Notes: generated from the sequence alone by a model not told the origin. 64,000 bases of DNA from Candidatus Latescibacterota bacterium (GCA_965243025.1 CBDETY010000003.1:5216001-5280000); one strand, 5' to 3'. Positions 40,424 to 43,802 are shown, counted from the stretch's first letter. Numbers and translations: made by a program.

Positions 40424-40699
40424 TTAGCAGTGGCATTTGCAAGGACCTGCATTACATTGGCCGCCGTAGTGTCCGGTAATCTGGCACATCCAGTTGCAAT
40501 ACGAATGGCCCCCATTCTGGTTACAATTTCCCCATGAGTGGTTTCCTGCGTCCGTCAAGCCGGGGCTCGGAGTGCTTACGACAAAGGCGCCTGCGATCAT
40601 CGCCCCGACCGCGCACGCCACCACCAAGGCCTTCCCTTTTCGGACGGTCCCCGTTGCCTCAGCAAAGAGACCTCTCGCTGCCTCAATGATCCTTTTCAT
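40424..40699 (-). CDS. Defensin-like (CS-alpha-beta) peptide precursor D2, 91 aa
   Basis: GGAGGA RBS before ATG 40699; hydrophobic leader; core CNQNGGHSYCNWMCQITGHYGGQCNAGPCKCHC = C-x8-C-x3-C-x9-C-x4-C-x-C plus an extra terminal Cys. Confidence 0.8.
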   Translation of the reverse strand: MKRIIEAARGLFAEATGTVRKGKALVVACAVGAMIAGAFVVSTPSPGLTDAGNHSWGNCNQNGGHSYCNWMCQITGHYGGQCNAGPCKCHC

Positions 40700-41056
40700 C
40701 TTTCGCTCCTCCATGCGGGTTGTTGAAGACTCAACGGCTTCATGCCGCGTTGACGCTGGAGGTACAAAGAAGCGAAAAAAAAAAAAAGAGTTGTCAAGGA
40801 AAAAAACGATCAGCCACTTCCGGGCATAGTCAACAGCTTAGTGGAGAAGCCAAGGGCACCCATTGGGGTTGGTCGTCGACAATAAGGGGTGGCGACGGTC
40901 GAGAGCCGCTGAGGCCGCAGGCCAGGGGGACGGCTCAGTCCTTTCCGGATCGGAAATCTTCCTTACGGAGATCTATTTCCAGGGATGCCTTGATGCGGCC
41001 CCAGGAGACGGATTGCACCGCAGTCTCCCCGGACTCGCCCCCGGGGCCCAGCAGCA
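40572..41056. repeat. Direct repeat copy 1 (~490 bp): D leader + upstream region + 3' end of A gene
   Basis: Highly similar to 43675-44165 by visual alignment; ends approximate. Confidence 0.85.
40775..40797 (-). promoter_or_regulatory. Putative promoter element of D2: TTGACA followed by ACTC and T13
   Basis: Plus strand A13 at 40775-40787 and TGTCAA at 40792-40797; no convincing -10 box at 17 bp. Confidence 0.45.
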
Positions 41057-41888
41057 GACCGTCCGCCCAATTGCTTGCTTGTCTGCGGTTACCCACATAG
41101 GTGGGTTCACCCAGCACGTATGAGGCATTTCGACCTCCGACTTCAACGTCGTAGTCACGCACCCGGACATCGAAACCGATGATCCTTCCCTCGGCCAACC
41201 GGGATACGACACTCTCCTCGGGGGGGCTCAGGTGATGCAGACGGTCAAAGCTGGTGACGAAAAACTCGATCAGCCAGACCGTGGGGTTCTCGCCGAACAC
41301 CCCCCTTCCGCCTCGGGCGAACGGGGGACGTACCATCCAGTCCGGCGGCTCGCCTTGCTCATCGAAAATAAAATCTGTAGTCAAATGCAAACTGATCATC
41401 GGGCCGCCAGGGACGCGGGCAATAGCGTCGTATCCTTGGGCTTGCCTGTTCGTCATCAACTCGTCGAGATCAGGCGGGTCTACAAAAATATACTTGCCTC
41501 CGGTGTGATCCCCGTCGATCAGAAATCTCATGCTGTCGTGAGCCCAGATGAAGTTGGGAAATTCCAGTGGGTCGTATTCGTTCACGTACACGTCGTCGGC
41601 AAACTGGCCGGCGACGTGGATCCGGCCGTCCCGGCCCCATCCCAGCCAGATGCGGAAATCGAGGTTGGAGGGATCGAGTTGGTCGTACGAAGTCCAATCC
41701 GGCTCGGACCACAGGTTGAAATCGAAGGGCGTCAGGGTCGGCTCACCGACGGCATCCTGCCAGTCTTCCACGCTGCCGTCGTCCAAGTCGAGGCGGGCAA
41801 GGGTCTCCTCCGAGAGATAGGGGATCGGAAACAGACGGTCCCCGGCGTGCGCGGCAACCGGGGCGGCTTCAGCTGAAATGGCCGCTAG

Positions 41889-43445
41889 CAGGCTGTTGAA
41901 AAAGTCCTATTTCCTAATAAAAACATAGCCTCAGACGATTGCCCGTCGTACCCGCCCTTTTCTAGATTTATGAAAGATCCAAGAAAAACGAGCCGATGCC
42001 CCAAGGAGGCCGGTGATGTCGATGAGCAAACGTCGGAAAAGTCAGCAGCAGGAGATCTGGGTGCCGACCCATACCCTCCCCGAGACCCCGAGCCATCCGT
42101 TTTACACCCAACTCAACCGGCTGCTGGAAGAGCATGGGTTTGATTCCTTTGTAGAAGAGCAGTGCGCCCCGTATTACGCCCAGAGGTTGGGCCGTCCCAG
42201 TATTGCTCCCGGGGTGTATTTCCGCATGCTCATGATCGGCTATTTCGAAGGCCTGGGATCGGAGCGGGCCATTGCCTGGCGGGTCGCCGATTCGTTGGCT
42301 CTGCGTCGCTTTCTCGGCTACGCCCTGACCGAGTCCACCCCGGATCATTCGAGCCTGTCGCGTATTCGTCAGCGCCTGCCCGAAGCGGTGCACGAAGCGG
42401 TCTTCGACTGGGTGCTGAAGGTGTTGTCCGACCGGGACCTGCTGCAGGGAAAGACGGTGGCGGTGGACGCCACCACGCTGGAGGCCAACGCGGCGATGCG
42501 CAGCATCGTGCGCCGGGATACGGGCCAGGGCTACCGCGAGTATCTGGAAGGGTTGGCCCGGGCCGAAGGCATTCCGGAGCCGACCCGGCAGGAGGTGGCC
42601 CGGCTCGACCGCAAGCGGGCCAACAAGGCGTCCAACCGGGACTGGGCGCATCCCCATGATCGGGAGGCCCGCATAACCAGGATGAAAGACGGCCGCACGC
42701 ATATGGCCCACAAGGCCGAACATACGGTCGATCTGGACACGCAGGCGCTGGTGGCCCTGCAGGTGTGCGGCGCCGATGAAGGGGATACCGCGTCGCTGCT
42801 GTGGAGTCTGGTGCAGGCGGACCGCAGCCTGAAAGAGGTCGGTGTCGATGAGCAGATCAGGCTGAGCGAAGTGGTGGCGGACCGGGGGTATCACAGCAAT
42901 GACACGATGAAGATGCTGAGGACGGCGGAGATCCGCAGCTACGTGGCCGAACCGGATCGCGGTCGGCGCAACTGGAAGAAGGATGCGCCGGCCAAGACGG
43001 CGGTGTATGCGAATCGTCGGCGTATACGGGGAGACCGCGGCAAGAGGCTGCAGCGGCTTCGCGCCGAGCACGTGGAGCGCAGTTTCGCTCATACCTACGA
43101 AACGGGAGGCATGCGCCGCACTCACCTGCGCGGCCACACCAACATCTACAAGCGTCTGTGTATTCATGGCGGCGCCTTCAATCTCGGGCTGGTGATGCGC
43201 AAGCTCACCGGAAAGGGAACGCCGAAAGGGTTGTATGGATTGGCATCGGTTTTCTCGACTTTTGCCGATCGCGCAAACGCTCTTTTGGGTCGAATTTTCG
43301 GTTATTTGCGATTGTTGAGCTGTCCTTTTCGGGACCATTTCTATAAATGGGAATGTTTAGCCTGATAACCGATTTTCTTGGGAAAGGAAATCATACATCC
43401 GCGACGTCCGGGGTTTCCGGAATAACCCGGATTTTCAACGGCCTG
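41889..43445 (+). mobile_element. Insertion sequence, IS1182/IS5-like, 1557 bp
   Basis: Terminal IRs CAGGCTGTTGAAAA / CAGGCCGTTGAAAA (13/14 match); CTAG duplicated at 41885-41888 and 43446-43449. Confidence 0.92.
42013..43365 (+). CDS. DDE transposase (DUF772-type N-terminus; IS1182/IS5-like)
   Basis: GRPSIAP, SERAI, TPDHSSLSRIRQR, VDATTLEANA, ADRGY, R...VERSFA; AAGGAGG RBS. Confidence 0.93.
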   Translation: MMSMSKRRKSQQQEIWVPTHTLPETPSHPFYTQLNRLLEEHGFDSFVEEQCAPYYAQRLGRPSIAPGVYFRMLMIGYFEGLGSERAIAWRVADSLALRRFLGYALTESTPDHSSLSRIRQRLPEAVHEAVFDWVLKVLSDRDLLQGKTVAVDATTLEANAAMRSIVRRDTGQGYREYLEGLARAEGIPEPTRQEVARLDRKRANKASNRDWAHPHDREARITRMKDGRTHMAHKAEHTVDLDTQALVALQVCGADEGDTASLLWSLVQADRSLKEVGVDEQIRLSEVVADRGYHSNDTMKMLRTAEIRSYVAEPDRGRRNWKKDAPAKTAVYANRRRIRGDRGKRLQRLRAEHVERSFAHTYETGGMRRTHLRGHTNIYKRLCIHGGAFNLGLVMRKLTGKGTPKGLYGLASVFSTFADRANALLGRIFGYLRLLSCPFRDHFYKWECLA

Positions 43446-43541
43446 CTAGTGTCAGGAGGAATATGGAACGGCGGTTCTTCATGAATCCCCGGATGTCCCC
43501 CCGCTGTCACTGCTGCGAACGGCCTGATCGATGCAAGGTCA

Positions 43542-43802
43542 TCAATTGTAGCAGTAACACAATTCGCCATCACAAGAGCCGCTACGGTGTCCGGTAATAA
43601 TGCACATCCACGTGCAGTACGACTGCCCTCCCGGAAAGTCACAGTAGAAGTAATGCGTATGGCTAGTTTTCGGCGTGCTTACGACAAAGGCGCCTGCGAT
43701 CATCGCCCCGACCGCGCACGCCACTACCAGCGCCTTCCCTCTGCGGACGATCTGCGTTGCCTCAGAAAGGAGACCTCTCGCTGCCTCAATGATCCTTTTC
43801 AT
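43542..43802 (-). CDS. Defensin-like (CS-alpha-beta) peptide precursor D1, 86 aa
   Basis: GGAGGA RBS before ATG 43802; leader nearly identical to D2; core CDFPGGQSYCTWMCIITGHRSGSCDGELCYC = C-x8-C-x3-C-x9-C-x4-C-x-C. Confidence 0.8.
   Translation of the reverse strand: MKRIIEAARGLLSEATQIVRRGKALVVACAVGAMIAGAFVVSTPKTSHTHYFYCDFPGGQSYCTWMCIITGHRSGSCDGELCYCYN

Follow-up and report, generated by a model that had tools for sequence, protein, structure and literature searches.

Tandem genes for defensin-like mini-proteins in a Latescibacterota bacterium carry a leader homologous to that of an A24 peptidase-linked peptide superfamily

In the portion of the published survey available to us, bacterial cis-defensins comprise five classes and 74 peptides, exemplified by xanthusin-1 of Myxococcus, and the GxC motif is described as universal in bacterial defensins (PMC11561630). 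The three phyla covered there are the Proteobacteria (delta included), Acidobacteria, and Actinobacteria, Latescibacterota not being among them, and sequences carrying transmembrane signatures were dropped (PMC11561630). Actifensin and actinomycesin of Actinomyces are further known bacterial defensins which, as far as the consulted accounts go, are made as small precursors with an export signal. Conotoxins and the antimicrobial peptide families of amphibians and insects combine a conserved signal with a hypervariable, Cys-rich mature part. Class III signal-peptide substrates include the archaeal sugar-binding proteins processed by PibD.

The window analyzed here is a 64,000-nt stretch of a Candidatus Latescibacterota bacterium genome (GCA_965243025.1, CBDETY010000003.1:5216001-5280000). 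Two small open reading frames, D1 and D2, lie on its minus strand where the first-pass annotation had placed them, each preceded by a GGAGGA ribosome-binding site and each directly 5' of a gene for a CBM9-like protein, P. The features of the locus, counted from the first nucleotide of the window, are as follows.

39312..40286, minus strand: P3, CBM9-like, 324 aa, 137 nt 3' of D2; terminal tag ..SVSWGRIKASL..
40424..40699, minus strand: D2 precursor gene, 91 aa (stop codon 40424-40426)
40427-40567, minus strand: D2 core, six plus one Cys
40568-40699, minus strand: D2 leader, aa 1-44
40700..40934, minus strand: intergenic block 5' of D2, partner of the 43803..44043 block
40707..40712, minus strand: GGAGGA ribosome-binding site of D2, 7 nt 5' of the ATG
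40935..41883, minus strand: remainder of P2, CBM9-like
41884..43444, plus strand: IS element, 1561 bp, with a GCTAG repeat on its flanks
42013-43365: DUF772/DDE transposase ORF inside the IS element
43445..43482, minus strand: first 13 codons of P2 (signal peptide), 57 nt past the D1 stop; the IS element splits off the remaining P2
43542..43802, minus strand: D1 precursor gene, 86 aa (stop codon 43542-43544)
43545-43670, minus strand: D1 six-Cys core
43671-43802, minus strand: D1 leader, aa 1-44
43803..44043, minus strand: intergenic block 5' of D1, matching the D2 block in 221 of 241 aligned columns
43810..43815, minus strand: GGAGGA ribosome-binding site of D1, 7 nt 5' of the ATG
44044..45039, minus strand: P1, CBM9-like secreted protein, a P3 paralog (83% identity)

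The precursors of D1 and D2 have four parts: a charged N-region of 23 aa; a nearly invariant hydrophobic helix (ALVVACAVGAMIAGAFVV); directly after the helix, an STP-x-PGLT linker; and a knob of ~37 aa bearing six cysteines. The near-identical leader of ~44 aa that had been annotated is borne out, with 39 of 44 residues identical and 5 different, and the cores share 45% identity. The annotated spacing C-x8-C-x3-C-x9-C-x4-C-x-C is likewise common to both cores, but it leaves out a seventh cysteine at the C-terminal end of D2 (...CKCHC). A GxC motif was recovered as GSC in D1 and GQC in D2, with GGxC as the consensus of the clade alignment. Judged from these sequences, D1 and D2 are real-looking tandem paralogs, and we read them as tandemly duplicated genes for probably exported mini-proteins of ~90 aa. 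The view that both are protein-coding, with a leader that stays constant and a six-Cys core that varies, is supported.

Synonymous divergence between D1 and D2 is 0.16 in the leader and 1.44 in the core, with dN/dS at ~0.4 in both alike. Since dS is low in the leader too, the contrast between leader and core within this genome marks a recombination or gene-conversion boundary and not simply diversifying selection. The homogenised tract of ~500 nt begins in the 3' end of the P gene located upstream, crosses the intergenic block (~240 nt, noncoding), and extends into the leader; because it spans noncoding DNA and the 3' end of P, it favours gene conversion between tandem copies over a special mutational mechanism. 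On these divergence values, the near identity of the two leaders reflects recent recombination or gene conversion. The IS element is polymorphic: runs X5 and X7 each have one contig that lacks it and in which 41883 is joined to 43445; in this empty-site allele, P2 is an intact ORF of 328 aa. P1 may start at the ATG at 45039, as suits the P family, or at 45162, where the longest ORF begins.

A search among 1.84 billion representative proteins returned only 11 matches at E<=1e-3, among them P0139, a long protein (881 aa) made up of repeats. Eleven further proteins, all metagenomic, have the D1/D2 architecture, and we refer to the group as the D clade; two truncated sequences, P0011 and P0012, were left out of its full-length count (n = 11). 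Mean pairwise identity in the clade is 0.86 for the leader and 0.57 for the core. All six cysteines are kept in 10 of the 11 full-length members, the exception being P0010, which is without Cys2. The net charge of the core is -1 in D1 and 0 in D2 and ranges from -4 to +2 across the full-length members, in agreement with the earlier description of the cores as non-cationic.

The first-pass annotation had read the cysteine framework as a CS-alpha-beta signature. When a core-only profile was compared with the PDB, 22 matches were obtained at E<=10; judged by name, the best 11 of these, and 15 overall, are defensins or defensin-like toxins. The best were 6PX8 (E 0.0087), in which all six cysteines are in register, and insect defensin A, 1ICA (E 0.009), whose alignment opens just before the second cysteine and covers the last five; coprisin, sapecin, and lucifensin were also among the defensin matches. 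Against Pfam Defensin_2 (cut-off, 20.4 bits), the relatives P0135 and P0133 came near the threshold, at 18.9 bits (E 0.0014) and 15.3 bits (E 0.019), and the Gamma-thionin scores were 0.006-0.01; 15 Pfam families were matched weakly, six of them defensin or scorpion-toxin families. D1 and D2 themselves matched no Pfam family at E<=0.1, and every defensin match is either below the curated threshold or at an E of ~0.01. Framework and sequence together point to an invertebrate-type CS-alpha-beta defensin; the cores would then be predicted to form a helix packed on a beta-sheet, with disulfides C1-C4, C2-C5, and C3-C6.

The leader gave a different result from the generic Sec-type signal that had been proposed. 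In hhalign, the D-clade leader aligned with that of a long-leader group at 98.8% (E 9.4e-17, 84 columns), and this group belongs to a superfamily linked to A24 aspartyl peptidase genes. Its members have a conserved leader, F-x-x-S/D-E-S/T-G, followed by a hydrophobic helix and a hypervariable Cys-rich core. The leader profile of the superfamily matched 34 Latescibacterota genomes out of 168 and, for the family to which this genome belongs, 28 out of 75, a single genome having as many as 15 copies; the superfamily was seen here only in Latescibacterota. On this profile comparison, the D-clade leader is a derived form of the conserved leader of a phylum-wide peptide superfamily and not a generic Sec signal.

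The canonical order of genes at superfamily loci is sigma54 activator, one or more adjacent TlpA-like thiol-disulfide oxidoreductases, A24 peptidase, peptide, and one to three CBM9-like P genes. The present genome has four A24 genes (C3:156k, 2826k, 5976k, and 5982k; the window is 5216-5280k), three of which are directly 5' of leader-bearing Cys-rich peptides, one of these three having an internal TGA. Of the 31 loci examined, 11 have an A24 gene directly 5' of the peptide; one of them, L015, is the nearest relative that the D clade has among the genomes. Five other genomes contain 11 A24 genes in all, 8 of which have a peptide gene no more than 5 kb away. Both Asp motifs, YTDL..RRVPN and PGDAKL, are present in A24, their Asp residues being the putative catalytic ones. 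The earlier statement that there is no C39 exporter or modifying enzyme was made for the window, where we likewise found no A24 or TlpA gene. Its first half extends to the whole genome, in which C39 peptidase (PF03412) has no match, in contrast to the double-glycine-leader bacteriocins and RiPPs with their C39-ABC exporter; its second half does not hold for the family, since canonical loci carry both A24 and TlpA-like genes. By gene content and leader sequence, D1 and D2 are derived "satellite" copies of the superfamily with no nearby A24 gene.

P is a protein of ~320 aa present in ~100 copies in the genome. The gap from D2 to P3 is 137 nt, and that from D1 to P2, with the polymorphic IS element removed, is 57 nt. 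Coupling of peptide genes to CBM9-like genes did not figure in the first-pass reading. A six-frame scan of the whole genome with a relaxed CS-alpha-beta cysteine pattern gave 15 matches; six are plausible secreted peptides, all six adjoining P genes. A second motif, C.[YWFA].C.{3,4}[GN]H in an ORF with four or more Cys, matched seven times genome-wide, each time directly 5' of a P gene. The other nine pattern matches were Arg/Pro-rich off-frame junk and were set aside. Among the 62 P arrays of the genome, ~17 have a Cys-rich small ORF upstream, 12 of which are intact with a ribosome-binding site (one more was found separately). The peptide-then-P order recurs in genomes L035, L040, L059-L061, L063, and L065; in genus g14, a different protein is downstream of the leader-bearing peptide. 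Since ~45 of the 62 arrays have no peptide gene and 23 of 30 leader-profile loci have no P gene within 1.5 kb, partnership with P is not obligatory. P had no sequence match in Pfam or NCBIfam. Its AF2 model (pLDDT 81.4) found CBM9 modules as the best Foldseek matches (7nwn, E 9.5e-11, TM(target) 0.74; 1i82_A, E 4.8e-9), and the modeled fold is similar to solved sugar-binding CBM9 modules, sugar binding by P itself being putative.

We regard it as somewhat probable that D1 and D2 are exported defensin-like mini-proteins, satellites of the A24-linked superfamily, that act with the CBM9-like protein P. In this model, the hydrophobic helix would insert in the inner membrane with the N terminus inside, and in canonical members the A24 peptidase would cut off the N-region at a Gly that is invariant in the long-leader alignment. 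The Cys-rich knob would fold in the periplasm, where TlpA-like enzymes may manage its thiols, and an AxA site past the helix could then free the knob of canonical members. In the D clade, Pro is found in place of AxA, and the candidate cleavage residue is Gly in 9 of 13 members, Gln in 3 (including D1), and Glu in 1. Given this loss of Gly in 4 of 13, the Pro, and the lack of a nearby A24 gene, D1 and D2 would most likely remain membrane tethered or be processed in trans. Together with the presumably co-transcribed CBM9-like protein, they could form an extracytoplasmic module for binding or defence.

It is unlikely, in our estimation, that D1 and D2 are instead independent, freely secreted, Sec-exported defensin-like antimicrobials or signals, with no dedicated peptidase and no role for P. 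Such peptides could be expected to show the Cys framework and defensin-like profile matches reported above, and the D precursors have a basic N terminus followed by a hydrophobic segment. In arms-race peptides, the signal is typically constant and the mature part variable; elsewhere in this genome, sister peptides (C3 494k, 458k, 3134k, and 120k) bear short signal peptides of the ordinary kind, whose sites are A-x-A-like, and A24, TlpA, and C39 genes were not found in the window. However, the leader (86% identity, versus 57% for the core) is homologous to the A24-linked leader, and the conserved 23-aa N-region and the Pro after the helix (VVSTP-x-P) would, by the -3/-1 rule, suit signal peptidase I poorly. 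By eye, this N-region, the Pro, and the absence of an AxA site in D1 and D2 are atypical for a cleavable signal peptide. Freely secreted antimicrobials also fit less well with neutral to anionic cores and with the tight coupling of both genes to P, and a diderm cell would require an extra outer-membrane step, none of which was identified.

We give still less credence to the idea that the knobs, rich in Cys and His, bind metal or act as redox partners in the service of P, with thiols that TlpA-like reductases keep reduced. Metal binding would also be compatible with the odd Cys count of 7 of 11 D-clade cores and with two conserved His positions, one ahead of Cys1 (H-x-W) and the other behind CxxxC (GH); sister peptides with 5 Cys occur. 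TlpA-like proteins, which are known as reductases for copper or haem sites, are encoded at adjacent genes in canonical loci; P bears a DGDH motif and, immediately behind its signal peptide, an invariant His, and its weaker Foldseek matches include the haem-binding subunits NxrC (1.1e-4) and EbdC (1.4e-4). Against this, the six cysteines are in register with disulfide-bonded defensins, and the best structural matches of P are sugar-binding modules.

The A24 genes raise the question of whether the peptides are pilin-like subunits with a class III signal, cut by A24 and polymerised through the helix into a fibre or pseudopilus displaying a Cys-rich head. A dedicated A24 gene is adjacent at canonical loci, the motif F..SE.G followed by a helix resembles, as we read it, the Flp prepilins, and the nearly invariant helix shows small-xxx-small spacing in the D-clade alignment. 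We nevertheless consider such a fibre very improbable. At E<=0.001, this genome, which is 96% complete, gave 0 matches to the T2SSE ATPase and 0 to the T2SSF platform, and it has no N_methyl or Flp pilin match either, whereas the same searches in 14 control genomes matched T2SSE in 13, T2SSF in 13, N_methyl in 8, and Flp in 1. With pilus ATPase, platform, and pilins not found, the Cys-rich peptides are the only candidate substrates of A24 seen. Neither superfamily nor D-clade leaders matched the Pfam profiles Flp_Fap and N_methyl even at E<=10, and a direct reading of D-clade and long leaders finds no Glu at +5 of pilins. Cleavage at AxA past the helix would moreover detach the head in canonical members, and the Gly is lost in part of the D clade. 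That D1 and D2 are not genes but fortuitous ORFs in repeated intergenic DNA of a 65% GC genome rich in small ORFs can be dismissed as barely credible, given a frame and cysteines kept across assemblies with whole-codon indels among relatives, a dN/dS of ~0.4, strong ribosome-binding sites before both, and consistent placement upstream of P genes.

Returning to the exported, A24-linked satellites that we prefer, it is conceivable, although we put this forward tentatively and would not expect it on balance, that in Latescibacterota without type IV filament machinery the A24 enzymes have been recruited to serve solely in the maturation of hypervariable, disulfide-rich, defensin-like mini-proteins that are produced under sigma54 control along with CBM9-like lectins and TlpA-like oxidoreductases, D1 and D2 being membrane-tethered escapees from the peptidase. 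If true, bacterial defensin-like peptides would have a new route of export and maturation, and bacterial A24 peptidases a first class of substrate that is neither pilin nor filament. The combination of peptides resembling insect defensins with a family that usually has its own putative leader-cutting enzyme encoded alongside is one that we did not find described in the literature.

Like type IV and Flp prepilins, the superfamily has a dedicated A24 gene beside substrate-like genes and a short polar leader ending in Gly before a hydrophobic helix. It differs from them in having no Flp_Fap or N_methyl match and no Glu at +5, in the lack of an assembly ATPase or platform found in this genome, and in a C-terminal part that is a defensin-like Cys knob, with AxA past the helix and, in the D clade, partial loss of the Gly. 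As in conotoxin-type superfamilies, conservation in the D precursors is much higher in the leader than in the core, synonymous sites included, but the low-dS tract takes in noncoding DNA as well, together with the 3' end of the P gene located upstream.

Insect defensins (1ICA, sapecin 1L4V, lucifensin, and coprisin) have the same C1...C2xxxC3...C4...C5xC6 framework with G-x-C before C4, and insect-type chains in the PDB align with the profile without gaps over 28-33 residues, although at E values of only 0.009-0.1 and with D1 and D2 below Pfam thresholds. The D peptides differ in being bacterial, in their neutral to anionic cores, in conserved His residues and a frequent seventh Cys, and in having, where insect defensins have a short signal peptide, a long leader that is conserved and includes a hydrophobic helix. 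Bacterial cis-defensins share with D1 and D2, in the part of the survey available, small precursors, an export signal, the CSH motif (CxxxC...CxC), and GxC, and some have acidic N-terminal tails (PMC11561630). That part makes no mention of A24 peptidase, TlpA, or CBM9-like neighbours (PMC11561630); individual sequences of the D clade and of the survey may overlap. The D peptides add a variant to the bacterial cis-defensin-like peptides.

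D1 and D2 are coding, conserved genes arranged in tandem, each encoding a leader (residues 1 to 44) followed by a Cys-rich core, and they are tightly coupled to genes for secreted CBM9-like proteins (the P family). The host genome (G000) comprises 6.8 Mb in three contigs, at 65% GC, and the window corresponds to C3:5216001-5280000. The order on the minus strand is P1, D1, an insertion sequence (IS), P2, D2, P3, and the locus and its flanking genes occupy the following window positions:

36238-38055, plus strand, FG-GAP/ASPIC protein (flanking gene)
38154-39086, minus strand, PD40 beta-propeller protein (flanking gene)
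39312-40286, minus strand, P3, P family
40424-40699, minus strand, D2, ORF of 91 aa
40935-41883 plus 43445-43482, minus strand, P2, P family, split by the IS
41884-43444, IS of 1561 bp with a DUF772/DDE transposase and a GCTAG flanking repeat, splitting P2 in its signal peptide
43542-43802, minus strand, D1, ORF of 86 aa
44044-45039, minus strand, P1, P family
45159-46331, minus strand, weak match to a PpiC-type rotamase (flanking gene)
46386-47357, plus strand, Cache-domain protein (flanking gene)

Both ORFs called in the first-pass annotation were recovered, with GGAGGA preceding the start of each by 7 nt, and so was the contrast that it drew between near-identical leaders of about 44 aa and diverged cores: residues 1 to 44 differ at 5 positions, while the cores are 45% identical. 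The spacing C-x8-C-x3-C-x9-C-x4-C-x-C is common to both cores as annotated, but the count of six Cys does not hold for D2, which has an additional seventh Cys at its C-terminal end. No Pfam or NCBIfam model matched D1, D2, or P. A search of positions 39000-45500 against Rfam gave no match, and a scan for sigma70 promoters and terminators near D1 and D2 gave none exceeding shuffled sequences.

Eleven further proteins from metagenome assemblies have the same architecture and together with D1 and D2 make up the D clade, in which mean pairwise identity is 0.86 for the leader and 0.57 for the core. The six Cys residues, on whose conservation among homologs the first-pass annotation had staked its defensin reading, are retained in 10 of 11 full-length sequences (two more sequences are truncated), and 7 of 11 cores have 7 Cys. 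Two His positions are also conserved, in H-x-W before the first Cys and in G-H after CxxxC. The cores are neutral to anionic (-4 to +2), in line with the earlier description of them as not cationic. The D-clade profile (A1) found only 11 matches at E ≤ 1e-3 among 1.84 billion representative proteins, one of them a long repeat protein, and pattern scans of GTDB species genomes and JGI metagenomes detected no member. A whole-genome search with D1 returned D1, D2, and one marginal match (E = 9.8), which later proved to be a distant relative; in 61 genomes of the same family, convincing matches were confined to two of the same genus (G027, 1.3e-9; G016, 1e-5). Some sequencing runs labelled 'sponge metagenome' contained small shares (0.15 to 0.26) of the sequence words sought.

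The cores have a defensin-type Cys framework, and by sequence profile their likeness to insect defensins is consistent and specific, if statistically weak. Two relatives approached the Pfam Defensin_2 model (P0135, E = 0.0014 and 18.9 bits, below the cutoff of 20.4; P0133, E = 0.019), and relatives were also near Gamma-thionin. When 23 members of the wider superfamily were compared with Pfam, 6 of the 15 weakly matched families were defensin or scorpion-toxin families. Against PDB sequences, the whole-precursor profile ranked insect defensin A first (E = 0.093). The core-only profile (A6) gave 22 matches at E ≤ 10, 15 of them named as defensins or defensin-like toxins, the top 11 included; the lowest E-values were 0.0087 and 0.009. 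All six Cys are in register in the alignment to 6PX8, and the alignment to 1ICA starts just before the second Cys and spans the last five. An Atlas search with the D2 core gave no usable match.

P1 to P3 are paralogs of ~320 aa without a Pfam match, and the best 120 of the 568 database homologs of P likewise have neither a name nor a Pfam domain. The AF2 model of P (pLDDT 81) best matched CBM9 modules (7nwn, 9.5e-11; 1i82, 4.8e-9), followed by a putative sugar-binding protein of Bacteroides and then by the haem subunits NxrC and EbdC. Invariant residues of P include the His that immediately follows the predicted signal peptide, the motif DGDHSGG, and a Tyr, and these could form a metal or Ca site. 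The family is hugely expanded, with 102 matches in 62 arrays in this one 6.8-Mb genome. At its C-terminus P has a conserved tag, TAVE..SWGRIKA; the pattern TAVE..[ST]W[GA][RQ][ILV]K[AST], followed by 2 to 6 residues and a stop, closes 94 ORFs of 150 aa or more, 77 of them in P loci and 17 encoding unrelated proteins, one at window positions 21945-22949 (plus strand) and the others at 16 other places on the contig (C3). The tag has the appearance of a sorting or anchoring signal particular to this lineage. A predicted complex of the D2 core with P3 residues 24-300 scored ipSAE 0.00 in two runs, for which controls were not folded, and gives evidence neither way.

The IS is missing from contigs of two other runs, the basis for the empty site, in which position 41883 is joined to 43445. 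With the IS removed, P2 is an intact 328-aa ORF starting 57 nt past the D1 stop; 137 nt separate the end of D2 from P3. A second copy of the transposase (C3:2823764-2825113) splits another P gene, within a cluster at 2.82 Mb that contains a gene for an A24 prepilin-type aspartyl peptidase.

The peptide-P arrangement recurs across the genome. Upstream of about 17 of the 62 P arrays lies a small ORF whose product is hydrophobic near its N-terminus and has a Cys-rich end; 12 of these ORFs are intact with an AGGAGG-type site, one more was seen besides, and about five are fragments. The peptides of this genome fall into three groups: the D clade, a long-leader clade with 8 Cys, and a 5-Cys clade whose signal peptides are short and ordinary and whose members have the motif C-A-Y-x-C-x-x-L-G-H in common. 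All 7 genome-wide matches to a motif pattern (C.[YWFA].C.{3,4}[GN]H, with at least 4 Cys) lie directly upstream of a P gene. The peptide-then-P order is also present in other genomes. Near-consensus sigma54 -24/-12 sites (GGCACG-N4-TTGCA), of which the genome has only 91, lie 75 to 77 nt upstream of three short-leader peptide genes (494479, 3134894, and 120259), and a sigma54-type site lies 155 nt before the A24 gene at 5983216. Unlike these sister peptide genes, D1 and D2 have no such site within 300 nt upstream. An identical gene for an 83-aa Cys-rich peptide occurs at C3:3346110-3346358 and C3:6066806-6067054, each copy with its own P gene; two identical copies 2.7 Mb apart point either to a large duplication in the recent past or to a repeat in the assembly.

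The D-clade leader is homologous to that of a wider superfamily of long-leader peptides (hhalign probability 98.8%, E = 9.4e-17, 84 columns), in which F-x-x-S/D-E-S/T-G is followed by a hydrophobic helix and mostly by an AxA site. The Cys framework on which the first-pass proposal of a separate bacterial defensin-like family was based holds; the leader homology counts against its separateness. The long-leader profile matched 34 of the 168 phylum genomes and 28 of the 75 from the same family, and a single genome had as many as 15 matches, often clustered. Among 31 leader-defined peptides examined, the cores are very diverse; CxxxC...C...CxC is present in 11 and a C-terminal CxC in 27. A gene of ~350 aa for an A24 'type IV leader peptidase' lies directly upstream of the peptide at 11 of 31 loci examined, including the one (L015) that holds the D clade's closest genome-held relative. 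The host genome has four A24 genes:

C3:156403-157476, A24 gene
C3:2826019-2827095, A24 gene
C3:5976130-5977142, A24 gene with an internal TGA
C3:5982146-5983216, A24 gene, paired with the peptide gene at 5981701-5982033

Three of the four (C3:5982k, 5976k, and 2826k) are directly upstream of long-leader peptides, and in five other genomes 8 of 11 A24 genes are no more than 5 kb away from a peptide gene. Genes for TlpA-like (AhpC-TSA/Redoxin) thiol-disulfide oxidoreductases and a sigma54 activator flank the A24-peptide clusters. The A24 proteins retain YTDL..RRVPN and PGDAKL, which we take to be the two catalytic Asp motifs, and a database search with this subfamily gave 78 relatives at E ≤ 1e-10, the named ones annotated as prepilin peptidase or CpaA. 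This linkage occurs in a genome without filament machinery: a search of G000 found no T2SSE ATPase, T2SSF platform, N_methyl pilin, or Flp pilin. Membership of the peptides in the Flp pilins was rejected on profile searches of the peptides and the genome. The absence of a C39 peptidase, annotated for the window, extends to the whole genome, and the window ORFs scanned included neither an exporter nor a thiol oxidoreductase.

Other gene neighborhoods were seen elsewhere. In another genus (g14; loci L069, L070, L072, L073, L075, L078, L080, L081, L084, and L086), the peptide is followed by a ~470-aa protein, not P, that starts with ..WDFDDGTTQGW.. and ends in FG-GAP repeats; ahead of the peptide genes there is often a sigma54 activator carrying Y_Y_Y/propeller domains. 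At another locus (L083, genome G149), a tandem of three leader-bearing peptide genes, whose 8-Cys framework contains CCC, is flanked by an A24-like gene on one side and a MacB/FtsX-type ABC permease on the other.

Within G000, diversifying selection was rejected as an explanation for the variable core, since dS itself differs ninefold between leader (dS 0.16, dN 0.064) and core (dS 1.44, dN 0.57); the shared leader within this genome is therefore not evidence of such selection. Rather, a tract of ~500 nt ending at the leader/core junction underwent recent homogenisation, or the cores were exchanged, because the leader dS is low, a 241-nt block upstream of D1 and D2 is nearly identical (221 identical columns), and P1 and P2 share 91% identity at their 3' ends, with the gene bodies far more diverged. 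Across genomes, the leader is, judged from its conservation, under strong constraint.

A Tat signal, suggested by the RR/RK before the helix, was dismissed by eye, as this pair varies (RK, HK, RG) and is missing in long-leader relatives. The first-pass annotation had put forward export via a hydrophobic Sec-type signal or anchor; for D1 and D2, free secretion is judged less likely than a membrane-tethered knob or processing in trans, because the locus lacks an A24 gene, D1 carries Gln where the Gly would be, and Pro comes right after the helix. In the proposed pathway, the hydrophobic leader helix would insert into the membrane, A24 would cut at the Gly in canonical members, disulfides would form in the periplasm, the AxA site would allow release of the peptide, and the peptide would cooperate with P. 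Biologically, D1 and D2 could serve in defence, could bind host or particle glycans jointly with P, or could take part in metal or redox chemistry.

Maturation coupled to A24 may operate without a filament system. If the A24 link is real, a prepilin peptidase functions without any pilus system, and more hidden Cys-rich peptides could be found via the leader rather than the core. The leader-defined family is large, and its diverse Cys frameworks could supply stable disulfide-rich scaffolds. In a literature search resting partly on titles and abstracts, no publication came up that connects Latescibacteria to defensins, and none that connects prepilin peptidases to Cys-rich peptides other than pilins.

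Bacterial cis-defensins are already known. They are few and have been considered potential ancestors of the eukaryotic ones; a 2024 survey counts 74 from three phyla, with sequences that bear transmembrane signatures filtered out (PMC11561630). The peptides described here would add a further phylum and a clade closest in sequence to insect-type defensins, together with a gene context previously missing for bacterial defensins: a dedicated A24 peptidase, thiol-disulfide oxidoreductases, a sigma54 activator, and a CBM9-like family that has expanded massively.
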